A stretch of 15,583 nt of DNA from Candidatus Vampirococcus lugosii (lineage in GTDB: Bacteria > Patescibacteriota > Gracilibacteria > Absconditabacterales > Absconditicoccaceae), in contig NZ_JAEDAM010000019.1 in assembly GCF_018420025.1 (NCBI RefSeq), forward strand, positions 1 to 15,583, in the 5' to 3' direction. Below are positions 1-15,583 of the stretch, in pieces. A program made the position numbers and the translations under genes. How positions within the stretch are numbered: the first letter of the stretch is position 1; the number at the start of each line of letters is the position of its first letter. The notes below the pieces were generated by a model. The model ran no database searches and was not told where the DNA came from. It worked only from the letters and a program-made list of their open reading frames with translations.

Positions 1-65
1 TCAACAAGATAATGAGTGACATAAGTTTTTCAATTATATTTGCGAGTACTTTTTTTAATAAACAT
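1..65 (-). CDS. 5' end of a CDS running off the left edge (MFIKKSTRKYNGKTYVTHYLV...); possibly an IS4/IS1634-like transposase N-terminus
   Basis: ATG at 65-63 on the minus strand. The frame is open to position 1 if TGA is Gly (one in-frame TGA). The basic N-terminus with GKTY...LV resembles transposase N-termini from memory. Only 21 codons are visible. Confidence 0.3.
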
Positions 66-313
66 ATTATAATTATTACCACTTAAAATAATAAAAGATA
101 AAAAATAATATATTTCATTATAATAAAAAAAATCATAATTTCAAGAGAAAATACAATAATACTCGCCACTACAAAATAAAATATTTTCTGTTTACAAAGA
201 TGAGATTAAACAAAAATAAAATATTTTAAAATTTAAAATAAATTTCTATTGATTTTTAAAAATTAATATGTAATGTATATATACATTTATATTTTAAAAA
301 TAAAAACAAAATA

Positions 314-1576
314 ATGGATTATAAAAAAAATACACAATATGATAACAAAACATTAGATAATGATGATATAGTTAGTTTGAATAATAAATGATTAGCATTA
401 TATGATTCATGAAAATATGAAGAAGCTATTGAATATTATGATAAAGTATTGGAAATAGATCCAAATTATACTACTACTTTGAGTAATAAATGAAGTCTAT
501 TGCAATATTTATGAAGGTATGAGGAAGCTATTGAATCTTATGATAAACTTTTAAAGTTAGAATCTAATAGTACTAATATTTTAAACAATAAATGATTAGC
601 ATTGCATAATTTATGAAGATATGAAGAAGCTATTGAATCTTATGATAAAGCATTAGAAATAACCTCAAATTATGCTATTACTTTAAATAATAAATGACTA
701 GCATTAATCTTTATATGAAGATATGAAGAAGCTATTGAATGTTATGACAAAGTATTAGAAAAAAATCCTAATGATACTAAAGTAATAGTTGATAAAGCAT
801 TAGCATTATATAGATTATGAAGATATGAAGAATCTATTAAATTTCTTGATATAGCATTGGAAATAACTCCTAATGATCAGTCTATATTGGATAAAAAATG
901 AATTGTACTACAAACAATTTTAAATTCTAAAAAAGATAAAGATAGTGCAGAAATTTTTTTGGAAAATATATGTAAAGAACTAAATGTTATAGATGAATGA
1001 TACAAAACCAATAATATAAGTGATATAAAAAGTTCTTATTTTTGAATATTAAGAAAAATTGTTGATAGTAAAATTTATGATTCTTATATATTACAAAAAT
1101 TTTCTTTATCTTATACTTTAGCATATATATTATCAAATGAAAGTGATGAAGCAATTGATATATGGTTACAGCAAAGTGATTATGAATTGCTTAATCAATG
1201 AATGGAGTATATAAAAAAATGACCACTTTCATTATCTGTAAATGATACATTATTGTATAATGAAATATGTTGATATTTGTATTGTTCCAATTTAATTACA
1301 AATCCATTACAAGAAAAACAATCTAGTTTGGAAAACTATATGAGAGTAAATTGTAATTATTTTATTGAAAATGAAGATGATGATAATCTTATTAGGGTTT
1401 TGTGAATGTGGAAATATTTATTAAATAAAATATATAATTCTAATCCTCCAAAAAACACATTATATGATGATTATTTAAAAATAATAGTAGATAAAAAATC
1501 AAAGAAAAAAGAAATGTTTTTTATGAAAGAAATATGTAATTTTTTATTACCTGATAAATGGGAATTACCTAATTAA
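314..1576 (+). CDS. Tetratricopeptide-repeat (TPR) protein, 420 aa
   Basis: ATG 314, TAA 1574-1576. I checked the frame codon by codon; it is open only when TGA is sense. It has five to six 34-aa units with consensus NNKGLALxxLGRYEEAIExYDKALEIxPN, in which both Gly residues are encoded by TGA. The C-terminal ~250 aa are not repetitive. Confidence 0.9.
371..880 (+). repeat. Five tandem 102-bp coding repeats (TPR units), highly similar at the DNA level
   Basis: The string aataaatga recurs at 383, 485, 587 and 689, with degenerate copies at 791 and 893, giving an exact 102-bp period. The core tgaagatatgaagaagctattgaatcttatgataaa is nearly identical between units. Confidence 0.8.
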
Positions 1577-1687
1577 AAAGGAACTAATACTATAAGTGAG
1601 TAGAATTATTTGAAATGTGAAGATATTATTTTCAGAAGCTTAGATGTGCAATTACTTGAAAAGTATCACAAAATATGTATAAAAAAT

Positions 1688-1713
1688 ACTGAAATTAGTT
1701 TTCAGTGTTTTTT
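1688..1713 (+). terminator. Rho-independent terminator downstream of the TPR gene
   Basis: Stem actgaaa (1688-1694) pairs with tttcagt (1700-1706) around a 5-nt loop, followed by gtttttt. Confidence 0.55.
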
Positions 1714-1909
1714 AATCAATAAAAAATAATAATAATCAGAAGATTAGAATAATTTTTTATTGACTTTTATTTAAAAATAATTAGTTATATATTAACTATA
1801 AATTATTTTATATTTTTGTATTTTATTTTTTTAAGTGCTAATAATCATAATATTTTTATTTCCTTTTAAATCTTTTATTTAATCAAGGATTTGGTCTACA
1901 AAATTGAGA

Positions 1910-2035
1910 TTAACGACAAATTGATTGAAAAGCTCTAACTGATGTACATTTATTTTCTTCAGAAATAATATGTAATGAATACGATAAAAAAGATAACAAC
2001 AATATTAATGTAATTATAATAGATAATTTTTGCAT
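1910..2035 (-). CDS. Small hydrophobic peptide, 41 aa (MQKLSIIITLILLLSFLSYSLHIISEENKCTSVRAFQSICR), translationally coupled to the upstream redox gene
   Basis: Its ATG (2035-2033) overlaps the upstream TAA (2037-2035) as TAATG. It has an N-terminal signal/TM-like segment and two Cys in the tail. The ORF is short, so support is weak. Confidence 0.3.
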   Translation of the reverse strand: MQKLSIIITLILLLSFLSYSLHIISEENKCTSVRAFQSICR

Positions 2036-3648
2036 TATTCAAATTTTTCATAATAAATATTTTCATATCACATTTTAATTAATTTTTCTTTTGATTCTAT
2101 TACTAATCAAGGATTTCAACATATGTAAAATTCTATTTCTTTATCATATTTGAAATTTTCAACATTAATTCTTCAATAATTATATATATTTATATTTTCT
2201 TTTGATAAATAAATATTGATTTCCAAATTTTCTATTTTTTTCAATTCATCTAAATAAAATAAATCATTTTGATTAGCTACTCAAAAGTGCAAATATTTTT
2301 TACAGTTTTTAATATTTGGATTATTGATCATAGAATATATAGGTGCCAAACCCGTTCAAGTTGCCAAAAAAACTTTTGATTTATTATTAATTTTTAATTT
2401 AAATTCACCAAAAATTCAAGCAATTTTTAAATTATCTCATTTATTTAATTTTGGAAATAATTTACTAGCTCTACCATTTGCTTTAAGTTTTATAAAAAAA
2501 GTAAAATTTAATCAGCTTTTATCTGCTATACTATACTGTCTTATAAATTCTCAATCAAAATCTTCAAGCACAAATTTAATAAATTGTCAATCAAAATATT
2601 CCAAATTAGAATTTGATTTTATAACTAATTTAATTACATCTTTAGTAAGATAATGAATTTCTGCTATTTCAACTTTTTTATAATTTTGTTTTTCTTCATA
2701 ATAAGGGATAAAATCTTTTTTGCTAACTCAACATAAAGGACAAACCCAATCATTTGGAATGTCTTCAAATTTAGTTCAAGGAAGTAAACCTCAATCTGGA
2801 TCTCCTTTATTTTCATCATAAATATATCAACAAACTATACATATATATTTAGTAGTTTTTCAAGCTTTAATATTTTTGTATACAGAATTTTTTTTGAAAA
2901 AAACAATAGTTCTAAAAATAATAACACTTGAAAACAAAATCATATAAAATAAATCAATCCTACTAGCAAAAGCTATATGAATCATACTCAATAAAAATAA
3001 TGGATACACCATATAATGAATTCATTTCCAAATAGAACCTAGAATTTTTTGAGAAAAATTATTTGAACTTATTCATAAAATTAACATTATAAATCAAGCA
3101 ATAAGTCAAGTTAATGCATCCATTCTATTTTTAATATTTTTGAATATATACTCCAATAAACTTGAATCTCAAAAATGATAATATCTTTCAAGTTCAATAT
3201 AATTTAACAAATGAATCATAAAAAATAAAAATGATAATATTCCAAATATTTTTCTAATAAATATTAATTTACTATAATATTTATCACTAACAAAATAAGA
3301 TAATGGATTAATCAATAGTGCCATAGACAAATAAAAAAAAGCTATTTTACCTGAAATTCTTAATATACTATTATCATAAGATTGCATAGTATTTGCAAAA
3401 AAATATCATAATATTATTCAAGGAATTAATAAAATTATTAAACTTATAGAAAATATAGAAAAATTTTTTAAAGATTTTTTTTCTTTAAAGAAAAGCAAGA
3501 AAAAAACAGAAAAAATTATATACACTAATATTGTATACCAAAAAAATTGATTTAAATAAAAAATATTTTCCAAATCTAATTTCAAAAAAGAAATAATTAA
3601 AGGTAATTGAAAAATTGACTGTATTAATAATAATATATATTTTTTCAT
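2035..3648 (-). CDS. Three-module membrane oxidoreductase, 537 aa: ferric-reductase/NOX-type haem TM domain, rubredoxin, and an FNR-like FAD/NAD(P)H-binding domain
   Basis: ATG 3648-3646, TAA 2037-2035. I checked the frame codon by codon and it contains many in-frame TGA. The N-terminus is a multi-TM region with His pairs (FFMIHLLNYIELERYYHF; WKGIHYMVYPLFLLSMIHIAF, an H-x12-H spacing). The centre is a rubredoxin, [46 protein letters not shown]. The C-terminus carries the FNR motifs RQYSIA, GRASKLF, ATGTGLAP and YICGNPGL. Confidence 0.9.
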
Positions 3649-3655
3649 AAATTTA

Positions 3656-4039
3656 TTACAAATTAGATACAAATTCTTGGAAAGCTTCTGTAGTTAAACT
3701 AGCTCATCACAAAGTATCACTTATTTGAACTTCAGATGGAATTAATCAAACTACTTCATCATTAACTTCCTGAGCAAATGCTTCTTGTGATGGATTTTTA
3801 GGATCTACATTTATTGATGTAATTATTCATTTATTGTCCAAACTAATTTTTCAATCCAAAAAAGCTACTGAATTATCTGGCAAATTATATTCAATTGAAA
3901 AATCTATAACTTCATCATTTTTATCACTAGTTTGATTATTATTAGTTTGTTCATTCTCTTCTTCAGAATTTCATCAAATACAACCTGATAAAACAAAAAT
4001 TGATACAAAAGGAAGTAAAAATAGAGTTTTATTATTCAT
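3656..4039 (-). CDS. Lipoprotein with a C-terminal FMN-bind-like domain, 127 aa
   Basis: ATG 4039-4037, TAA 3658-3656. The signal peptide MNNKTLFLLPFVSIFVLSGC carries the lipobox LSGC. The C-terminus (...GIITSINVDPKNPSQEAFAQEV...QISDTLGGASLTTEAFQEFV) resembles the FMN_bind domain and its flavinylation-type motif Dxx(s/t)GA(S/T). It ends 7 nt before the next gene's start. Confidence 0.85.
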
Positions 4040-4204
4040 AATTATAATACAATTAATTTAATAAAATGAAATAGTATAATAATTTTTTAAATAATAAAAT
4101 CAAGTAAAAATACTTTTATATTTGAATTTTTTATTAAAATAATTATTATATACTTTAATTTAAAGTTTAGTTTAATTTAATATTTTTTTACAAAAAATAC
4201 AAAT

Positions 4205-6628
4205 ATGTTAATTTTTTTTATTATATTATCTATATTGTTTTTATTTTTTTTCTTTTTGATAAAATATTTAATTTTTCATATGAAGAAAAAAAATATACTA
4301 AAAAAAGCAGATGATATTAGATTTATTCAAGTAAAAATTTCTAGTAATAATTCTGAATGAACTGATCAAACTTCTTCTATGAAACAAAATATTGAAATAA
4401 TGAATCAATTGTACAAAAATTTGTGATCAGTTTATTCTGGAGATTATATGAGTACTAAGTTTGGTCAAAATTTCATAGTATTAGAAATGATTGTAGAAAA
4501 AGAAATGATAAATTATATAATGTGAATTCCTCAAGATTATGTTGAATCATTTGAAAAATTAATTTCATCATTTTATCCTTGATCTGTAGTAGATAAAATT
4601 TCACAAAATAAAATATTAAATGCATGAAATTGTGTTTCTGCTTGAGATATAGTTCTTTCCAAGTCTGATACTTTACCGATCAAAATTTATGATGATTTTG
4701 AAGCTGATCCTATAGATAGTATTTTATCTTCATTTTCAAAAACTAATTGGGATGAAAAATTAATTTTACAATTTGTAATAAGTCCATTATCCGATTGAGA
4801 ACAATCTAATTTTTCAAAAGCAGTAGAAGCTTGTAAGACAAGTAAAAAAAAGTCAATTTTTTGATTAATTAAAAAAATATTTGATTTTAATTCTGATGAA
4901 TGAGAATCAAAGTGAGAAGAAAAAAGTAAATATACATCTTCACAAACACAAGATATAGATAAAAAATGAGAATGAGAATTTTTTAATGTAAAGATTAGAA
5001 CATTAGCAATAAGTCCTGATCAAAATAGAGCAGATAAATTTTTGAGAGATATTCAAAGATCTTTAAGTCAATATAATTATGCATGATTAAATAAATTATC
5101 TGTAAAAAAACCAAAAAATTTAGATGATTTTTTATATAATTTTATTTATAAATCTCCTATTAGTTTACAAACTAATATAAGAAATATTCTCAAAACAGAA
5201 AAAGGTCATATATTTAGTATCAAAGAACTTTCTTCTCTTTATCATTTTCCTCATTCCAAATTTAATAAAAATCCAAGAATTAGATGGCAAAATTTTAAAA
5301 TAGTTCCAGCACCTGATACTATTCCTTCTGATTGATTATATATATGAAATAATTTATATTCTTGAGTTAATAAGAAAATTAGAGTAAAACCGGAAGATAG
5401 ATTTAGACATTTTTATTGTATTGGTCAAACTGGTACTGGTAAATCAACAATGCTTACTGTACAAGCAAAAGATGATTTAATTAATTGAAGATGATTTTGT
5501 ATGATAGATCCTCATGGGGATTTATGTGAAAGTCTTTTATGATATTTTCCCAAAGAAAGAATTAATGATCTTATTTATTTTGATGCAGCAGATTTTCAAA
5601 ATCCTATATGATTAAATGCTTTTGAAGCAGAAAATGAAGAACAAAAAGATGTAGTTGTAAGTGATTTGGTAGATATGTTTGTTAATCTTTATTGACATGA
5701 AATTTTTGGTCCTAGAATTCAAGATTATTTTAGAAATGGTGCATTAACACTTATGGATCAACCTGATTGATGAACTATGGTAGAGATTGTAAGACTTTTT
5801 GCAGATGAAGCTTTCCAAAAAACTAAACTTAAAAATGTAAAAAATCCAGTAGTAAGAAATTGGTGGGAAAAAACTTATGCAGCTATGTGAGATAGAGAAA
5901 AGGCTGAAGCTATTCCTTTTTTTCAAGCTAAATTTGGACAATTTACTACTACTCCTATTTTGAGAAATATAATATGACAAACTGAATCATCTTTCAAAAT
6001 GTCTCAAGTTATGCAAGAAAATAAAGTTTTGTTAGTAAATTTAAGTAAATGAAAATTGTGAGAAATAAATTCTGAACTTATCGGTAGAATTATTACTACA
6101 CAAGTAAAAGTTGCAGCATTACAAAGAGCATCTATGCCTGAAAATGAAAGAATTCCTTTTTATTTGTATATAGATGAATTTCAAAATTATGTAAGTCAAT
6201 CTATAGAAAGTATATTATCTGAAGCAAGAAAATATAAATTATGACTTACTGTAGCTCATCAATATATTGATCAACTTAGATCTCATTGATTATGATGAGA
6301 TTTGGATTTGTCAAAAGCTATTTTTGGTAATGTTTGAAGTATTATGGCATACAAAGTATGACCTGAAGATGCAGAATTTTTGGAAAGAGTTTTTGCACCA
6401 GAATTTAGCAAATCTGATTTGGTAAATATGGATAAATACAAATGAGTTATGAGATTATCTGTAGATAGTCAGCCTACTAAACCTTTTAGTATTGCAACTT
6501 TAAATCCATTTACTCCTTTTATAAATTCTCCTGAAAAAATTAAAGTAATAAAAGAAATTTCTTCTCTTAAATGGGGAAGAAAAAAAGAATTAGTAGAAAA
6601 AGAAATTTATTATAAAGTATGAGTTTAA
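4205..6628 (+). CDS. Membrane-anchored P-loop ATPase of the VirD4/TraG/TraD (type IV secretion coupling protein-like) family, 807 aa
   Basis: ATG 4205, TAA 6626-6628. There is an N-terminal TM segment (MLIFFIILSILFLFFFFLIKYLIF). Motifs are Walker A GQTGTGKST (5423-5449), MIDPHGDL, Walker B FYLYIDEFQNY, and ARKYKLGLTVAHQYIDQL, which is typical of the TraG/TraD C-terminal module. Confidence 0.88.
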
Positions 6629-6652
6629 TTTATTTTTAAAATTTTTTGATTA

Positions 6653-7318
6653 ATGAATTCAACTATTAATTTATCTGAATTATTCTTGGGAACTTGTTTA
6701 CATTTTTTTGTAAATAATTTTTTTGATGAACAAAATGAAAATGAATTATTAAGTGATAATGAAATTTTACAAAAAATAATTGATTGAAATAAAAATATTT
6801 TTTCTTTATTGTTGGATAGATATTCTGATAAAATATATAGATATATTTTTTACCATTTTAATTTTGATAAAAAAATTTCTCAAGATCTTACTCAAGAAGT
6901 TTTTCTTCATGTTTGGAACAAATTAAATAAATTTGATAATGAACAAAAATTTGAACCATGGCTTTATAGATTGGCACATAATTGCTGTATTGATTGGATT
7001 AGGAAAAATAAAAACAATTTAAGTGAAAGTTCTTTGGATAATATTTCGTATGATATATGAGAAGCATTTGATGAGAATGATCTTGAAAATAATTATAAAC
7101 AAAAATTAATTTATCAAATACTTGAAAAATTGGATCATAAATCTAAACATATAATTATATTATCATATTTTGAACAAAAATCTTATGATGAAATTGCATA
7201 TATTATTTGAATATCAAAATGAGCTGTATGAACTAGTCTTACTAGAGCAAGAAATAAATTGAAAGATATCATAAACTCGGATGATGTTTTGAAAGATGCA
7301 CTTAATTTTGATTTATAA
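6653..7318 (+). CDS. ECF-type sigma-70 family RNA polymerase sigma factor, 221 aa
   Basis: ATG 6653, TAA 7316-7318. Region 2 reads DLTQEVFLHVWNKLNKF...FEPWLYRLAHNCCIDWIRK. The region 4 HTH reads SYDEIAYIIGISKGAVGTSLTRARNKLK, with three Gly encoded by TGA. The gene starts 24 nt after the ATPase stop. Confidence 0.9.
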
Positions 7319-7346
7319 AATTTATTTTACTATAAAATATTTTAGT

Positions 7347-8063
7347 ATGAAAAAAAAGCTTGATTTATCAAAACTACTTTCAAAAGATAATTATCAAGAA
7401 ATAAAATTATCAAAAGATATAAAAGATAATATATTGAAGCAAACTATTTACAAAAAACATAGTTTTTTGAGTAAGTTTAAATTTTATGCATTACCAAGTT
7501 TTGCTATATTATTAATATTTGTTTTTTGATTTTATTTTTATGAAATAAATAAAAATAGTTTTGTAAATCAAGAAAATCAAAAAAACATAAATATTTGACT
7601 TAATAATATTGAAAATCAAGAAGTTTGAAATTTTGAAGAAAATGAAGAAATTCAAGAAAATAGTATACAAAATTTTGCAAAAAATAGAAGTCTAGATCAA
7701 ATTTCTGAAGATGTAGAAATGTTTGATACTGATTCAAGTAATGATATTGAACAAAATATAGGTACATATTCTATGGAAGAATCTAATACTTGATTTGGTA
7801 GAGCTTGATTTGGAGCTAAAACAGTAGATGTTGCAAGTAGTTGAGTTTATGAAAAAGATGATTTTTATAATAAATTAAAAAAATATTTTGTAGAAAATTA
7901 TATTAAATTTATAATTTTATCTATATTAATAATTATTAATATTTTGATTTTATTTTATACATACAAATATTTTTCATTAAACAAAAAAATGAAAATATTG
8001 TTAATTATTTCATTTTTTGTAGATATTTTATTGTTTTATTATGTAATATTTATTTTAATATAG
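7347..8063 (+). CDS. Membrane protein, 238 aa; putative anti-sigma factor by position
   Basis: ATG 7347, TAG 8061-8063. It starts 28 nt after the sigma stop. It has a ~50-aa N-terminal cytoplasmic segment, a TM segment (FYALPSFAILLIFVFGFYFY), an acidic low-complexity middle and two C-terminal TM segments. No ZAS motif is present, so the function is inferred from synteny only. Confidence 0.65.
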
Positions 8064-8090
8064 GATTTTGAAATTAAACTAAAATTTATT

Positions 8091-10847
8091 TTAAGAATTA
8101 AGTATTGAATCGGCTCTTTTGAAAACACTAAATAAAGTTCATATACAAATATCTTTTTTTCACATAGGAACTGGTAATGTAGCATTATTTTCTTTATGTT
8201 TCATAATTCTGTGAGAAGTAGAGTTTTGTCTATCTTCTTCAAAACCAAATTTTTTCAATATTAAAACCATATCATTTGAGGATAAATCTTTTCTGAAATA
8301 TTTCAAAATATTATCATAATCTACTGTATTATCTTGTAATTCATTAGAATTTTTTTCTATTATTTCATCTATTGAAAAATATTTATTAATTCCAAACAAG
8401 AAATTAAATAAATTATGAGATATATTTGATAAATTTTTATTAAGTAAATCTTGATTAATATTTTGTGAACAGAATAAATCTAGTAAAAAATTAATTTTTT
8501 CTTCATCAATAGATTTTATAAAAAAATCAATATTATACAAAGATAAAAAATTTTTAATTATTAAATTATGATTTATAATATTTGATAAAAAATTTATATT
8601 TTTTATATTGACAAAAAAGATATCTAATTTTTCCAAATTTAGATTATTCATAATATTTTCAAAATAATACCAAATTCATCAATTTGAATTATTTTCAGAA
8701 TCTATATATTTCAATAATCATCTATTTTCCAAAAATGATAATATTTGAAAAAAGTTATAATATCAATTATTAATATTATCCAAGTTTTCAATTATAGAAT
8801 GAGTATCAATTTCATAATTTTGTAATATATTATAAATATTTGATATAATAGAATTATTAGTATTATGATTATCAATTGAATATAAAAAATCACTTAAACA
8901 ATTACAATCATCAAAATCATAATTCAATATAAATTCTTCAAAAATGTATTTATTACTAAAATATTTATTTATAAGTAAATTCATATTAATATCATCTATA
9001 TTTGAACGAAAAGCTAACTTATAAAGAACTGAAAATAAAATACTGTAATCGTTTTCATTATTTTCAAAAAAGCTTTTCCAAGTATTAATTTTTATTGAAT
9101 TTTTTCAAAATTTATTTTGTATATATAAATAATCAGAAAGTTTATCTTTTTGGTATTTAAATATTTTGCTTCTATTTTGATATTCATTTTCTATATTGTA
9201 AGAATTTATAATTTTATCAAAATAATTATTAAATTTATTAATATTATTTATAGTTTTGAATATATCGTTTTTATTATTTTCATAATAATCTTTAATTTCA
9301 TATACATATTTATCAACAGTTTTTTTATAAGTTGGATCAAAAAATTCTTCAAAATTTTGTAATTTAGATATATTTCATTTAATTTTCACTATAGCTTGTA
9401 CAAAATTTATAACTTCAGTTTTATTTTGTAGTTCAAATATTTTTTCAACTAAATTTATGTTATATGATAATAAATTTTTGATAAAACATAAATCAGCATC
9501 CAATAATTTAACTATATTATTAAATCATAATCTATTATTAATATTTTTATGTATAAAATCTAAATCCAAAAAATACATAAAATCTAATATATAACTTCAA
9601 TATGAATTAAAAAAATCTTGATTTTGAATCAAAAAATCATAATCAAATTTTTCAAATAAATATTTTTTATCTTCATTTGAAAGTGAATTAAGAAATTGTA
9701 AATTTAATAAAACTTCATCTTTTTTTACAAGTTCTAAAATATCATCTTTATTTAATATATTTCATTTATTATACATTTTATAAAATGATTTAATTTGCAT
9801 ATTTGATATATTTAAATCATTCAAATTTCATATTGAAAATATAATTTCCAAAAATTTTTTATCAAAATTATTTTCATAAAAGAAAATAAAATTAGATTCT
9901 ATATAATCTTTATCATCAAAAAAGGATAATAAATTATTATAATATTTATTTTTATTAAATAAATCTTTTATATAAAAAGAAAATCTATCAAAAAATTCTT
10001 GAGATATATAAAAATCTCTAATTCTTTTCTTTTCATAATTTAAAACGGCAGTAGTAGGACAGTTTTTGTTCCAAGAAATTAAAAAATCACATATATCATT
10101 ATAAATTATTTTTGGTAAAGATAATTTTTTATTAAAAAGATTGTAAAGCTGATCTATTAAAATATTGTTTTTAGTAAAATCTATATTTGAAATAGCAAAA
10201 TAATCTATTATATATAATATATCAATATATTCATATATTCATATTTTATCATTATTTATAAGACATATATCTTTTAGTTCATCTGAAAAATTAGAATAAT
10301 TTCTTAAAAAATTTGGTTTTTTAAATTTGAAAATAAATTTATCATCATTATGTACATTTCTGTATGAAAATGCTAATGTTCTATTCAAAGAAGTTAACCA
10401 ATAACAAAAAGACAAAACAATATCAAATATTTCAGAATTTCATTTGTATCTTATAATATCTTCTTCATAATCAATATCAACTCCAATATTTTCCAAAAGA
10501 TTTAAAAAATCTTTATATTTATTAACAAAAAATTCATAATATTTATCATCAGATTTTAATATATTAAACATATCATTACATACTTCTATCAAATCATCTA
10601 CTCATCATACATTAACCATTTTAGTCATATATCAAAAATTTCTTATAGAATCAAAAAAAATTCAAATATTATTTAAATTTTTTGATTTTAAAAAAGAAAA
10701 AAATTCTTTAATATTTTCATTTTCAATAATATTTTCAACATCATCTCAAACAGCAAGAAACATTTCATGTGCTATTTTTTTTAAATTATCGTTATTATTC
10801 TTTATATTATTGATATTATTTACAGGAATACTATTTTCTAAGCCCAT
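8091..10847 (-). CDS. Large (918 aa) uncharacterised cytoplasmic protein with a complete C-terminal HicA (mRNA interferase toxin) domain
   Basis: ATG 10847-10845 with an in-frame TAA five codons upstream; stop TAA at 8093-8091. I checked every codon on the plus strand for tta/cta and found none. The track ORFs 8160..8651 and 8763..8984 are in-frame fragments of this CDS. The last ~60 aa (MVLILKKFGFEEDRQNSTSHRIMKHKENNATLPVPMGKKDICIGTLFSVFKRADSILNS) match the HicA consensus (...L.k.GF...rq.GSH......vtvP.h..kdl..gtl..ilkqag). Confidence 0.85.
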
Positions 10848-10883
10848 ATTTATTAAATATTAAATATTTAAATTAAAATATAA

Positions 10884-10911
10884 TATATAATTACTAATAA
10901 TAAAAAGTCAA
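10884..10911 (-). promoter_or_regulatory. Candidate sigma-70 promoter for the HicA-fusion gene
   Basis: On the minus strand, TTGACT (10911-10906), a 16-nt spacer and TATATA (10889-10884), about 35 nt upstream of the ATG. Matches like this arise easily by chance in AT-rich DNA. Confidence 0.4.
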
Positions 10912-11088
10912 TATAATGTTTTTTGATTTTTGTATGATTATATTTTTTAATATTTTATTTAAATTGTTTTTAATTGAAACGATATATTATAAAAAAAATA
11001 AAAAATCTCTTGAAGATAAGGAAAAATTAATTATATAGATATTACTTTAATTATCAAAAATTTATTTATTAAAATTAATTATTACACA

Positions 11089-11346
11089 ATGGCGGATAAA
11101 GTTTTTTTTGGGAATGTGAAAGAGATGACAAATAATTATTGAACTATGTATAGTATATGAATAACAAAAGAAGATCTAGACAAACTTGTGTTTAATGAAA
11201 AATGATGGGCAAATATAAGTTTAAAAAAATCTAGTAAATGAAATTGGTATATGGAAATATATAATCCTCAAGATAATAATAATACACAAAAAACATCGCA
11301 AACTGAAGTAGTAAATGAAGAAGAGGATGAAGATTTACCTTTCTAA
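11089..11346 (+). CDS. Small (85 aa) beta-rich protein with an SSB-type acidic C-terminal tip (...EEEDEDLPF)
   Basis: ATG 11089, TAA 11344-11346. Sequence: MADKVFFGNVKEMTNNYGTMYSIGITKEDLDKLVFNEKGWANISLKKSSKGNWYMEIYNPQDNNNTQKTSQTEVVNEEEDEDLPF. It has four in-frame TGA codons. The tail matches the bacterial SSB C-terminal tip (D-D-D-I/L-P-F). Confidence 0.75.
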
Positions 11347-11422
11347 AGAGTAGAGTGGGTAATTATAAGAGTGGATTTAAATAAGATAAAAGTAATTAAG
11401 TTTATAAAAAAAGTATTTTGAC

Positions 11423-11450
11423 TTGACAAATTATTAAAAATGTTTATAAA
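11423..11450 (+). promoter_or_regulatory. Sigma-70-type promoter of the GC-enriched RNA island
   Basis: TTGACA (11423-11428, in a tandem ttgacttgaca context), a 16-nt spacer and TATAAA (11445-11450) preceded by TGT. The predicted transcription start is around 11456-11458. Confidence 0.55.
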
Positions 11451-11455
11451 GTAAA

Positions 11456-11818
11456 TCCCTTGTAAGCTTCATATTTGGAGGCAGTCATGTTAAGTATTAG
11501 TCTAAATTCGGTTAATGCCAGAAACAAGGATTTTACTACATTTGTTTATGAGTATCCTTTGGATATTTCTATAGCAAGTATAGAGAAATTCTTGAAATTA
11601 AGGACATTTAGGAAAGTAGAAACTTGCTTTCTTTCAAATGAAGGCAAGCCTTTCTTTTCGGGTGAAAGGATTTTACTTGGCAATGATACAAGTGCAAGGA
11701 TACTAACAGCTATAACGGGAATTTATCCAAAATTAAGGGAGATTCCTATCGTGAAATCTAATCACTAGAATTTCTCATTTTTTCTTTTCTTCCTATGAAT
11801 TTCATAGGAAGTTTTTTT
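11456..11818 (+). ncRNA. Probable structured non-coding RNA of ~360 nt, class unresolved (RNase P RNA considered but not demonstrated)
   Basis: The segment is clearly more GC-rich than the flanking genes and has its own promoter and terminator. Long-range complementarity: 11456-11461/11735-11740, 11474-11479/11726-11731, 11504-11514/11713-11724 and 11551-11559/11696-11704 (9 bp). Local hairpins lie at 11565-11588, 11636-11657 and 11675-11693. The embedded 93-codon ORF has flat GC across codon positions (about 32/38/28 percent by my count), uses AGG for Arg and never uses TGA for Gly, unlike the neighbouring genes. Confidence 0.5.
11789..11818 (+). terminator. Rho-independent terminator
   Basis: Perfect inverted repeat cttcctatgaa (11789-11799) / ttcataggaag (11801-11811), followed by seven T (11812-11818). 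Confidence 0.85.
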
Positions 11819-11859
11819 ATAAAAAAAATATATTAATATTTAATTAATATATTGTCAAA

Positions 11860-11947
11860 CGGTGAGGATGGGATTCGAACCCATGGTACAAATAAATTGT
11901 ACACATGTACTCCAAACATGCGCTTTCGACCACTCAGCCACCTCACC
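11860..11947 (-). tRNA. tRNA-Ser (anticodon GGA), class II with a long variable arm; no encoded CCA
   Basis: The reverse complement is GGTGAGGTGGCTGAGTGGTCGAAAGCGCATGTTTGGAGTACATGTGTACAATTTATTTGTACCATGGGTTCGAATCCCATCCTCACCG. The acceptor stem is GGTGAGG/CCTCACC. The anticodon stem is CATGT/ACATG with loop TTGGAGT. The variable arm has a 6-bp stem. The T arm is ATGGG-TTCGAAT-CCCAT. The discriminator is G, followed by TTT. Confidence 0.95.
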
Positions 11948-12133
11948 ATCAACTTAATGTATAATAAAAATTTTACAAAATACAAGAAATAATTTAATAA
12001 AATCACAATTTAAAAAATGATTGTATAAATATGTAGAAATAAAAATTAAATAAATTTGTTGATTTTTGAAAAAAATTAAGTATATTATAAGAACTATAAT
12101 AAATTTATCATATAAATATTAAAAAAACAAATT

Positions 12134-12463
12134 ATGGATAACATAAATAAAGCTATAAACTATAATTATAAATTTGATTGAATAACTGAAGTTCTTAAAA
12201 ATGATATAATTGATCTTGTAAATAAAAATATTAATGGTAAAGTTAATTGATATTTGAAAAAAATATTAGAAAAAAAAGACTCAAAAGTACATATTGATAT
12301 GGATATTAAAAAAAATAAACAAGAAAAATATGAATCATCATTTAGATTTGATTTAGATTGAAAAATTATTGTTTACAAGAATTCTGTTCCATTCAAAAAT
12401 ATTAATGATCTAATAAATCATGCATTTGATCATCTAAAAAGAGAAATATCAGATTCAAAATAA
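12134..12463 (+). CDS. Ribosome hibernation/ribosome-associated inhibitor (HPF/RaiA/YfiA)-like protein, 109 aa
   Basis: ATG 12134, TAA 12461-12463. The predicted beta-alpha-beta-beta-beta-alpha layout and the C-terminal helix NINDLINHAFDHLKREIS resemble the HPF family (...MYaAID...dKLerQl.K). This assignment is from pattern recall only. Confidence 0.6.
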
Positions 12464-12497
12464 TTTTTTTTTATCAATATAATTTAAATATTTAAAT

Positions 12498-12965
12498 ATG
12501 TCAAAAAAAGTAAAATATCTAACTCAAGTAGGTTATAATAAGTTACTAAATGAACTTGATGAGTTACAAAAGGAAAAACTTCCTGAAGTTTTGCAGAGAT
12601 TAAAAGAAGCAATAGAACAATGAGATATTTCTGAAAATTCTGAATACGATGATGCTATGTCTGAAAAAGATTTAGTAGAGGTTAGGATTAATGAAATTAA
12701 ATGAATGCTTGAAAATGTAGAAATAGTTAAAGAATGAGCTACATGATGAATTATTAAATATTGATCAATAGTGCATCTTAAAGATGAAAATTGAAATGAA
12801 TATAAATTTACTATGGTTTGAACTTGAGAAGTGGATATATTGGATTGATCTATAAGTTTTGATTGTCCAGTATGAACTGCTATTGCAGGTAAAGTAAAAT
12901 GAGATAAAGTAAGTGTTAGATCGCCTAGGAAAAGATATGAAATGGAAATTATGGATGTTAAGTAA
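12498..12965 (+). CDS. greA: Transcription elongation factor GreA, 155 aa
   Basis: ATG 12498, TAA 12963-12965. The N-terminal coiled coil reads LTQVGYNKLLNELDELQKEKLPEVLQRLKEAIEQGDISENSEYDDA. The C-terminal domain reads ...ISFDCPVGTAIAGKVKGDKVSVRSP. The invariant G of GD(L/I)SEN is encoded by TGA (12621-12623). Confidence 0.95.
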
Positions 12966-12994
12966 AATATAAATATTTTTTATGTTAATATTTA

Positions 12995-13025
12995 AGTGTA
13001 GTTTAAAACTACACTGATTTTTGTT
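12995..13025 (+). terminator. Rho-independent terminator after greA
   Basis: agtgtagtt (12995-13003) pairs with aactacact (13007-13015), followed by gatttttgtt. Confidence 0.7.
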
Positions 13026-13068
13026 ATTTAATAATGTTGTATTTAATATATTTTTAATAAAAAATATT

Positions 13069-13536
13069 ATGATTTCAATAGTTGTTGCAATGTCATTAAA
13101 TAGAGTTATTGGAAATAATAATTCTTTGCCTTGGAATGTACCAGAAGATTTGAAGAATTTTAAGAAAATTACTTCAGGTAAAACTGTTATAATGTGATAT
13201 AAAACATATCAATCTATATGATTTCCATTAAAAAATAGAAAAAATATTATATTATCAAAAGAAAATATTAAAATTGAATGATGTTATATTTTTTTTAGTA
13301 TGCAAGAGATTATTGATTATATAAATCAATCTGATGATAGTGAAATTATGGTTATATGATGAGAAAGTGTTTATACTCAATTTATAGAAAGAAATTTAAT
13401 AGATAAAATTTATTTAAGTCTTATTCCTCAAGTTGTTGATTGAGATAAATATTTTCCTATGTTTGAAGATAAATTTAAATTAGTTTCTGAAGATACTAGG
13501 CAATGATATATATTTAGAGAATATTTAAGAAAATAA
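13069..13536 (+). CDS. folA: Dihydrofolate reductase, 155 aa
   Basis: ATG 13069, TAA 13534-13536. [63 protein letters not shown] and IMVIGGESVY match the DHFR signatures. The conserved Gly residues are encoded by TGA (13195-13197, 13357-13362) and the Trp of PW by TGG (13132-13134). Confidence 0.95.
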
Positions 13537-13593
13537 TTTTTTTACTTAAATCAATATGAGTTTTTAAAAAGTTAAATATTTATTTGCAAAATA

Positions 13594-13629
13594 AAAAAAG
13601 ATATATATTATATAGTGTATATCTTTTTT
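13594..13629. terminator. A-tract/hairpin/T-tract element; possible bidirectional terminator after folA
   Basis: aaaaaagatata (13594-13605) pairs with tatatctttttt (13618-13629) around a 12-nt loop. The stem is AT-only, so support is weak. Confidence 0.4.
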
Positions 13630-13683
13630 GTTTATATTTAAAAAAATATATTAAATAATATTTATAAATTATAATTAATAATA

Positions 13684-14001
13684 ATGGACTATAGTACTAA
13701 AAAAGAAAAAATTATTGAAATTTTGAAAACTTATGAAAATAAGGAATTTTGTGATTTTTTTATGAAAGATTCTGATAAAATGTCGCCTGAAGATATAAAT
13801 GATATATATGTATGTCTTACGGTAGATGATGAAAATGCTATTAATGAAATAGTAAAAAAAAGAAATGAAAGATTTAGTGAATTGATATCAAGATTGGATT
13901 TGTTGGATACAAAAGTTAGGAGGAAAATATTGAATCATAAAGAACAAAAAGAAAACAAAAAAGATATGAAAGATATTGAAAATTTATTTGATAATATATA
14001 A
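13684..14001 (+). CDS. Hypothetical acidic, glycine-free protein, 105 aa
   Basis: This is the only track ORF that is intact in the standard code, because the protein contains no Gly at all. ATG 13684, TAA 13999-14001. The C-terminus is rich in charged, helix-prone residues. Confidence 0.7.
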   Translation: MDYSTKKEKIIEILKTYENKEFCDFFMKDSDKMSPEDINDIYVCLTVDDENAINEIVKKRNERFSELISRLDLLDTKVRRKILNHKEQKENKKDMKDIENLFDNI

Positions 14002-14004
14002 ATA

Positions 14005-14490
14005 ATGTGATTAGAAAATAAAGATGTACAATTAGATGATAGAGATTCCATAAAAGAATGATTAGATATGGAAGAATATCAATTATCTGAAAATACGAAG
14101 TTTATGCAAGAATTATATAAAAGTGCTGTTGATAAATTATGAAAAATGGAAGATAAGTTTTGAGAATTAGTAGAAAATGATGAATATAACGATTATGATT
14201 GAGATGTTGATGTTATAAATCCTAGAACAGAGTTTGAACAGCTTGCAAGTGAATTTATGCAAGAACTTCAAGAAATTCAAGAAATTAGATCTGAAATGGG
14301 AATAGCTGGTCGTATTAATTCGGAGATAAGTAATGTTTTGTATAGATTAAATCCTATGAATGCATTGTGAGAAAAAATTGATCATGCTATTAGTGGTTGA
14401 GAAAAAGGTTCAGATAATTATATGGCATTTAATAAAGTAGTTCAACAAATGTTGGATGCTCAGGAGAGAGAATTACAAAACTTAGAATAA
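14005..14490 (+). CDS. Hypothetical acidic helical protein, 161 aa
   Basis: ATG 14005 lies one codon after the previous stop and in the same frame; TAA 14488-14490. I checked the frame codon by codon, and the eight in-frame TGA codons read as Gly. I recognise no family. Confidence 0.7.
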
Positions 14491-14598
14491 TTAATGAAAA
14501 TAATTTTTATTTTTTATGATTATGTGTTTTATTAAAAATATTTGTGTATAAGTTGCTTATATTAAAAAATAAATTTATGAAAAAAAACAATTTTTGTA

Positions 14599-14627
14599 TT
14601 GACAAATATAATTAATTTATATATAAT
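14599..14627 (+). promoter_or_regulatory. Consensus sigma-70 promoter upstream of the secreted Cys-rich protein gene
   Basis: Exact TTGACA (14599-14604), a 17-nt spacer and exact TATAAT (14622-14627), about 58 nt upstream of the ATG at 14686. Confidence 0.6.
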
Positions 14628-14685
14628 ATATTTGGAATTAATAATTTAAGAATTAATTATATTTATATAATGAAAAATAATAAAT

Positions 14686-15583
14686 ATGAAAACAAAAATA
14701 AAAAAAATATTTGGAGTGCTTTTTGTTGTTTTATTGCTTTTGATTTGATGAATTACTAAAGCAGATAAACATTTTGTTAGTTGTGATTTGGAGTTCAAAA
14801 TAGGAGATAATATAATATATGAAAATAATAATTCGCAGAAAGTTTTTAGATTTAATACTAAAGGTTCTTTGTTATTTTATACTGATCCAGCAAATATTTA
14901 TTTTGGTTTGGATAATTATACTGGGCTATGATATAATTCATTGTATGTAAATAGAAAATCTTGACAAGATGGGATTAGAGATGTTTCGCCTGAAATACAT
15001 AGATCATCTTTGCCAAATAATTGACTTGAATTTGTAAATACAAGTGGTGATAAGACAATATTATGGTGAGATGATGGTGCTTTAAATTCTAATAGATTTA
15101 TTGCTTATGATGGATTTCAAGCTGGTTGCTCTGATTCTGGTTGGAAAAATGAATTAACTAATAATTGGAATAGATATGATTATACAAATGATCCTGGGAC
15201 TTTTTATCCACAACCACTATGTTGAAATGAAAATGGTAAAGTTTATGCTTGGAATGAAACAAGTTGGGATACACAAGATTTTTGTACAGAAGGAACAGTA
15301 AATCCATCAAATCCAATTTTCCCTGATGAAGGAGAGACTAGGGCATGGACTTGTACCGCTCCTTCTCATAGTCCAGTAACTTGTAGTGCAAGGAGAGAGA
15401 CTGAATCACCTAATGATTGTACAGGTCCAGATTGAGCTATTATTGCTCATGGTGATAGTAGAACTTATTATAAAAATACTGTAGTAGATGGTGAAGAAGA
15501 TGATAATGCTTGTGTATTTGGTGAGTCCACCTTTCCTTGTATTATAGATGGAACAGGTGCAACTGGGGAAAATAATGTTTGTG
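14686..15583 (+). CDS. Secreted cysteine-rich protein, 3'-truncated by the window edge (299 codons visible)
   Basis: ATG 14686; I checked the frame codon by codon to the window end. The signal peptide is MKTKIKKIFGVLFVVLLLLIGGITKA. There are many Cys and W/N/D/T-rich segments (e.g. ETRAWTCTAPSHSPVTCSARRE). The gene is more GC-rich and uses GGN for Gly more than its neighbours do. Confidence 0.85.

Follow-up and report, generated by a model that had tools for sequence, protein, structure and literature searches.

The 15,583-bp contig NZ_JAEDAM010000019.1 of Candidatus Vampirococcus lugosii, which was analysed over its whole length and is referred to here as the window, is best explained by the SR1/Gracilibacteria genetic code (NCBI translation table 25), in which UGA specifies glycine and only UAA and UAG terminate translation, and a probability of about 0.97 is attached to this reading. 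The window has a GC content of 20.7% and was deposited under table 25, and V. lugosii belongs to Candidatus Absconditibacteriota (Absconditabacteria/SR1) within the candidate phyla radiation (CPR). An earlier annotation made by a model from the letters alone, hereafter the sequence-only reading, had already assigned UGA to glycine under table 25, and this assignment is borne out by the homologue columns, the Pfam scores and the stop usage described below; its placement of the DNA among Gracilibacteria/Absconditabacteria-like CPR bacteria likewise agrees with the source organism, an Absconditabacterium. The reassignment had also been described there as a known one, and this organism's genome paper does state that UGA encodes glycine (PMC8080830).

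Contrasting patterns were observed for the reading frames under the different stop sets. When TGA is counted as a stop, no more than 10 stop-to-stop frames reach 100 codons, summing to 3,828 nt with a longest frame of 172 codons, and the open reading frames (ORFs) of the standard code are thus the mere fragments they had been taken for. With TAA and TAG as the only stops, the longest frame extends to 923 codons, an event with a chance probability of about 1e-36 at the out-of-frame TAA plus TAG frequency of about 8.5% per codon, and 14 non-overlapping coding sequences (CDSs) cover 84.5% of the window. The earlier estimate of about 16 CDSs covering most of the window therefore holds for the coverage but not for the count, since 14 solid CDSs and one tRNA were recovered. 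The 153 in-frame TGA codons, about 3.5% of all codons, are spread over 13 of the 14 CDSs, whereas internal TAA or TAG codons are entirely absent from the 4,373 in-frame codons, compared with 313 and 433 in the two alternative frames of the same genes. The terminal codons of the 13 complete CDSs comprise 12 TAA, one TAG and no TGA, indicating that UAA and UAG still act as stops. When TGA was translated as an unspecified residue (X), Pfam recognised TPR repeats, a rubredoxin with ferric-reductase transmembrane and FAD-binding domains, a TraG/TrwB-like ATPase, an ECF sigma factor, GreA and dihydrofolate reductase (DHFR), and full-length Pfam and PDB matches extend across the in-frame TGAs. Moreover, identical proteins are encoded by an independent Logan assembly, and 10 of the window CDSs translated with TGA as glycine match NCBI V. 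lugosii proteins exactly; the NCBI VirD4-like protein corresponds to the window ORF with glycine at every TGA.

The identity of the inserted amino acid is most clearly displayed by the VirD4/TraG-like coupling ATPase of family DUF8128 (4280-6628, plus strand, with the frame open from 4205), which contains 35 TGA codons. Scanning of this protein against species-representative genomes yielded 80 loci, from which 71 usable orthologues without in-frame TGA (Peregrinibacteria, Saccharibacteria, Doudnabacteria, Woesebacteria, Uhrbacteria and others) were used for the column test and, given these groups and the lack of in-frame TGA, were taken as standard-code; seven further orthologues are recoded, with 7–22 in-frame TGAs each. 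At twelve V. lugosii TGA columns, 66 or more of the 71 standard-code CPR orthologues carry glycine, all 71 doing so at six of these columns, and tryptophan is the consensus at none of the TGA columns. The log-odds summed over the 32 occupied TGA columns reach +63.6 bits for glycine, with serine next at −38.4 bits and tryptophan at −102.2 bits, while the TGG-encoded residue 554 is tryptophan in all 71 orthologues. The seven recoded relatives exhibit either TGA or GGN at those columns.

A comparable pattern was observed for the remaining proteins when they were aligned with solved-structure chains, all of which come from standard-code organisms. In DHFR, six TGA columns could be aligned and all of them are glycine in 4/4 chains; three of the four TGA columns of rubredoxin, comprising both CxxCG knuckles and the glycine of the PGT motif, are glycine in 5/5 chains; the TGA-encoded glycine of the FNR GTGxAP motif is glycine in 5/5 FNR-family chains; and residues 45 and 190 of the ECF sigma factor are glycine in 5/5 chains. 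The TGA at the GreA tip aligns with glycine (GD) in the two chains whose tip is of the GreA type, one being E. coli GreA and the other a GreA/Gfh1 chimera, and with serine in two Gfh1 chains. The DHFR, GreA and rubredoxin alignments together thus display TGA columns that are mainly glycine and never tryptophan. The eight sets of coordinates quoted in the sequence-only reading are all exact, with codons and sequence contexts as given there: on the minus strand, the rubredoxin knuckle codons at 2827-2829 (in CIVCx, where x is the TGA residue) and 2728-2730 (in CPLCx) and the FNR codon at 2356-2358 (in LATxTGLAP); on the plus strand, the DHFR codons at 13195-13197 (in VIMx) and 13357-13362 (TGATGA, in VIxx) and the GreA codon at 12621-12623 (in EQxDISEN); and two conserved tryptophans encoded by TGG, one in the rubredoxin NDW at 2746-2748 on the minus strand and the other in the DHFR LPW at 13132-13134. 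The claim that TGA occupies both glycines of every TPR unit was found to be slightly too broad, because each position is TGA in five of the six repeats; in repeat 5 the first glycine is replaced by alanine, and the second position is missing from repeat 6.

Pfam bit scores follow the same order, with TGA read as glycine, X and tryptophan respectively: 152.8, 88.7 and 73.4 for TPR_1; 155.5, 132.9 and 126.4 for DHFR_1; 64.0, 43.1 and 35.3 for GreA_GreB, the C-terminal domain of GreA; 79.7, 70.5 and 67.9 for Rubredoxin; 46.4, 39.4 and 34.0 for Sigma70_r4_2; and, for NAD_binding_1, 33.2 with glycine, no hit with X and 14.1 with tryptophan. Similarly, the overall composition amounts to 4.9% glycine and 0.6% tryptophan when TGA is glycine, against 1.4% glycine and 4.1% tryptophan when it is tryptophan.

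The use of TGA among glycine codons was also observed to vary with base composition. In the CDSs of the window TGA accounts for 153 of the 215 glycine codons (71%), against 62 GGN codons, and the TPR gene at 314-1576 uses 16 TGA and no GGN. Among eight VirD4-like orthologues, those with a higher GC content use TGA for a smaller share of their glycine codons (Spearman rho −0.83, p = 0.01), the share declining from 73% at 20.7% GC to about 20% at 35–41% GC; this is the trend that synonymous TGA and GGN codons should show when AT mutational pressure sets their ratio. Strong pressure of this kind may accordingly be what made UGA, the most AT-rich glycine codon, the main glycine codon of V. lugosii.

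The mechanism for V. lugosii most likely follows that suggested by its relatives and by the literature. UGA would be read by a dedicated tRNA with a UCA anticodon and the bacterial glycine identity set (G1:C72, C2:G71, G3:C70 and U73), and since such a tRNA(UCA) retains this set, glycyl-tRNA synthetase would be expected to charge it with glycine; release factor 2, the competitor for UGA, would have been lost, and release factor 1 would handle UAA and UAG. A tRNA(UCA) is present in two of the recoded relatives (loci designated by L and a number), namely L007, at 22.7% GC (3692-3770, minus strand), and L028 (5398-5476, minus strand). In both it exhibits a 7-bp GCGGG acceptor stem with G1:C72, C2:G71 and G3:C70, the discriminator U73 and a short variable loop, and its identity elements match those of the L007 tRNA-Gly(UCC) and are unlike those of selenocysteine or tryptophan tRNAs. 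Shulgina & Eddy relied on these acceptor-stem and U73 elements when they assigned tRNA(UCA) molecules to the glycine acceptors (PMC8629427). ARAGORN named the two molecules tRNA-SeC, solely from the anticodon. Each lies about 6 kb upstream of the VirD4-like gene and is divergent to a conserved membrane protein of 230–250 aa (PF05552), for which a search returned 120 best matches that are all from Gracilibacteria, with no V. lugosii orthologue among them. Beyond the VirD4-like gene, no match to the genes of the window was found in the recoded loci L001, L002, L007, L013, L014, L016 and L028. The loci of the closest relatives (L081-L084) keep the sigma-factor gene downstream of the VirD4-like gene, and no tRNA was found in them. 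Release factor genes are absent from the 15.6-kb window, and the supplements of the V. lugosii paper list neither tRNAs nor release factors (PMC8080830). Release factor 2 has been reported only from the two Gracilibacteria species for which no UGA meaning was inferred; both are without the tRNA(UCA), and UGA apparently remains a stop in them (PMC8629427). In favour of glycine at the protein level, proteomics of a Gracilibacterium recovered 97 unique peptides for UGA as glycine against 3 for UGA as tryptophan (PMC4032931).

Several observations weigh against UGA as glycine in this window. The only tRNA of the 15.6-kb contig is a tRNA-Ser(GGA) at 11859-11948 (minus strand), and no tRNA with a UCA anticodon occurs there; the support at the protein level comes from a Gracilibacterium and not from V. 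lugosii itself. Some TGA residues also fall outside glycine columns, such as residue 257 of the VirD4-like protein, which is aspartate in 106 of 119 relatives; residue 74 of the same protein, in a tyrosine column; residue 193 of the sigma factor, which aligns with lysine or arginine; and residue 29 of rubredoxin, in an asparagine/serine column. In addition, the marginal Pfam domain TraG-D_C scores 24.7 bits with tryptophan against 21.2 bits with glycine. The off-glycine columns fit ordinary substitutions, and none of them suggests tryptophan.

The alternative that UGA encodes tryptophan under table 4, the code used by Mycoplasma/Spiroplasma and by several endosymbionts of insects, predicts ORF boundaries identical to those of table 25 and would suit a very AT-rich genome like those of table-4 lineages, and it gains the 3.5 bits of TraG-D_C as well as the company of public VirD4-like entries, which are often in table-4 style. 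Against this stand the absence of a tryptophan consensus at every TGA column of the 71 standard-code orthologues, with log-odds of −102.2 bits; the conserved TGA columns of the solved-structure alignments, which are glycine and never tryptophan; the loss of 8–80 bits per Pfam family upon tryptophan substitution; the implied tryptophan-rich and glycine-poor composition; the use of TGG at conserved tryptophan positions; and the glycine rather than tryptophan identity elements of the relatives' tRNA(UCA). At the level of the aligned sequences the tryptophan reading is refuted by the column statistics and is regarded as highly improbable, in line with the earlier argument from glycine at TGA and TGG at conserved tryptophans against a Mycoplasma-type code. 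As for the public homologues of the VirD4-like gene, 94 of the best 120 contain more than 2% tryptophan, with W exactly where the others have G, and most of these entries seem to be table-4 rather than table-25 translations, which introduces tryptophan-for-glycine errors into the protein catalogues of this clade. A standard code with genuine TGA stops would require the contig to be pseudogene-ridden, error-ridden or chimeric, or some of the sites to be programmed readthrough or selenocysteine codons, and the fragments obtained under table 11 are what it would produce. This possibility is close to negligible, given 153 in-frame TGAs against no internal TAA or TAG, the improbability of a 923-codon frame, domain matches that run full-length across TGAs and the same proteins in the Logan assembly. 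A codon that makes up 3.5% of the total implies no selenocysteine insertion sequence (SECIS)-like elements or selenocysteine machinery, and the selenocysteine and pseudogene readings are both excluded by the asymmetry between TGA and TAA/TAG.

A further alternative keeps UGA as the main glycine codon and adds other changes to table 25, such that V. lugosii would read CGA and CGG as tryptophan or leave them unassigned; it is a tentative proposal, judged to fall a little short of an even chance. In the window CGA, CGG and CGC do not occur in frame in 4,373 codons, compared with 9, 7 and 6 occurrences in the other two frames. In two Absconditabacterales relatives, L001 and L002 (51% and 49% identity), whose VirD4-like genes (10001-12391 and 10001-12382) were compared with window positions 4280-6628, all CGA and CGG codons lie on Trp/Phe/Tyr or variable columns and never on conserved arginine columns, and three of the aromatic positions are TGG in V. 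lugosii. Among the best 120 database homologues, W and R alternate at V. lugosii TGG columns, and CGA/CGG as tryptophan has been inferred for Absconditabacteria by Shulgina & Eddy 2021 (eLife; PMC8629427), a published reassignment that the L001/L002 pattern matches. In the Gracilibacteria L016, L028 and L014, CGA and CGG occupy invariant arginine columns. On the opposing side, the lack of any in-frame CGA or CGG makes a direct reading from the window impossible, the strong overall CpG depletion of the window (39 CpG observed, whereas base composition predicts 164) would suppress CGN codons by itself, and the relatives were examined for one gene family only. Table 25 suffices for the window, and the code of the organism as a whole may be wider; if the additional changes are true, the code would deviate from the standard one in three ways, and it would do so where GC in the clade is lowest.

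With UGA as glycine, the remaining features of the window can be described as follows. The TPR-repeat protein MBS8121857.1 (314-1576, plus strand; Pfam TPR_1) is followed on the minus strand by MBS8121858.1 (2035-3648), a three-domain membrane protein named 'Rubredoxin-NAD(+) reductase' that combines a ferric-reductase-like transmembrane region, a rubredoxin and an FNR-like FAD/NAD module and contains 23 TGA codons. Directly preceding it on the same strand is the small lipoprotein-like MBS8121859.1 (3656-4039; 7 TGA), which has a UniRef name of FMN-binding and a weak FMN_bind match (E = 0.022) that appears only with TGA as glycine and is lost with tryptophan; the two genes have the appearance of an operon serving transmembrane electron transfer. 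The tripartite transmembrane-rubredoxin-reductase type is highlighted in the V. lugosii paper as a candidate system for generating proton motive force or detoxifying reactive oxygen species (PMC8080830). Downstream of the VirD4-like gene are the ECF-type sigma factor MBS8121861.1 (6653-7318, plus strand; 5 TGA; Pfam Sigma70_r4_2) and a hypothetical membrane protein (7281-8063, plus strand; 7 TGA), the start codon of which is uncertain and which ends in TAG. On the minus strand at 8091-10847 lies a 919-aa protein rich in Asn, Ile and Lys, with 19 TGA codons and a C-terminal HicA-like domain (HicA_toxin, E = 5.9e-11, residues 858-912). Just downstream of the sigma-factor gene of the closest relatives' loci L081 and L082, no gene of comparable size is called, although a 638-aa minus-strand gene occurs about 3.8 kb further on in L081. 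The hypothetical 85-aa protein MBS8121849.1 (11089-11346; 4 TGA), the 109-aa protein MBS8121850.1 (12134-12463; 3 TGA; UniRef name 'ribosomal subunit interface protein'), GreA MBS8121851.1 (12498-12965; 12 TGA, with the codon at 12621-12623 in the G-D-(I/L)-x-E-N tip), DHFR WP_213348779.1 (12982-13536; 8 TGA; 184 aa in GenBank and 155 aa in RefSeq, where it starts at 13069), a hypothetical 105-aa protein with neither TGA nor any glycine (13684-14001) and the hypothetical 161-aa protein MBS8121854.1 (14005-14490; 7 TGA) are all encoded on the plus strand. The last gene of the plus strand (14686-15582; 8 TGA and 22 GGN) encodes a secreted, Cys-rich protein and is truncated where the contig stops. 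Only 8 of its 30 glycines are encoded by TGA, compared with 145 of 185 for the remaining genes (Fisher p = 5.5e-8), and yet its GC at third codon positions (GC3) is typical; it is possibly a recent acquisition or under different constraints.

A non-coding island was also observed at 11458-11828 (plus strand), a stretch of about 370 nt with 30–38% GC in a contig of 20.7% GC. Associated with it are a promoter-like site (TTGACA and TAAAGT separated by 18 nt, 11423-11452) and a strong terminator, a 10-bp hairpin (11789-11811) followed by a T run, and its folding energy lies 4.8 standard deviations below that of shuffled sequences (z = −4.76). The 93-codon ORF contained in it (11487-11768) has no TGA, stops at TAG, is not annotated by NCBI, exhibits a GC3 of 0.29 against 0.08–0.17 in real genes and appears by eye to contain many AGG codons, the other genes having 11 AGG against 89 AGA; a search of 5.8 billion proteins returned no homologue of it, and Pfam gave no match. 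This ORF is probably not coding. A comparison of the island with Rfam returned no family, even at E values up to 10 on the short stretch; no transfer-messenger RNA was found in the window; and nhmmer detected no homologue of the island in 84 loci. Motifs of RNase P-like and signal recognition particle-like RNAs, sought by eye, do not fit. An exact 20-nt scan of metagenome contigs gave one match, which lies in an ORF that is NadA-like by translation on an unrelated contig and was taken as chance. The island is probably an unclassified structured small RNA of about 360 nt.

The assignment of UGA to glycine is not a new finding and adds nothing scientifically; it is of little interest as a discovery, the reassignment being already established in the phylum and stated for V. 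lugosii in its genome paper. Its importance here lies in the annotation, as the choice of code decides every other feature: under table 11 the contig resembles debris, and under table 4 about 3.5% of the residues would be wrong, with tryptophan replacing glycine at catalytic and structural positions. Table 25 was reported earlier in a 2013 PNAS paper and by Rinke et al. 2013 (as cited in PMC8629427 and PMC8080830). The V. lugosii genome (Moreira et al. 2021, Nat Commun) represents the same sequence, and that paper states UGA as glycine, used Prodigal with table 25 and describes the tripartite transmembrane-rubredoxin-reductase type found at 2035-3648, whereas the searched passages and supplements report neither the UGA share of glycine codons, nor the use of CGA/CGG, nor the island at 11458-11828 (PMC8080830). 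The window does not differ qualitatively from the SR1/Gracilibacteria code, with which it shares UGA as glycine, UAA and UAG as stops, a low-GC CPR genome and, in relatives, a tRNA(UCA) with glycine identity; at 20.7% GC the contig lies at the low extreme of the clade's range of 0.21–0.53 (PMC8629427), with UGA in the majority (71%). The Absconditabacteria with CGA/CGG as tryptophan (PMC8629427) belong to the same phylum and are likewise low in GC, and the VirD4-like genes of the relatives place these codons on tryptophan or other aromatic columns; V. lugosii differs in having no CGA or CGG in frame within the window. The dominance of UGA, whose share tracks GC across the relatives, shows neatly how AT pressure acts on a codon that has been captured. 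The table-4 lineages, in which UGA encodes tryptophan, include Mycoplasmatales, Entomoplasmatales, Hodgkinia, Nasuia, Zinderia and Stammera. They resemble the present case in the capture of UGA from stop to sense in AT-rich, reduced genomes and in the identical ORF boundaries, but they differ in the amino acid, which is tryptophan in those lineages and glycine here, where the decoding tRNA of the relatives carries a glycine acceptor stem and U73.

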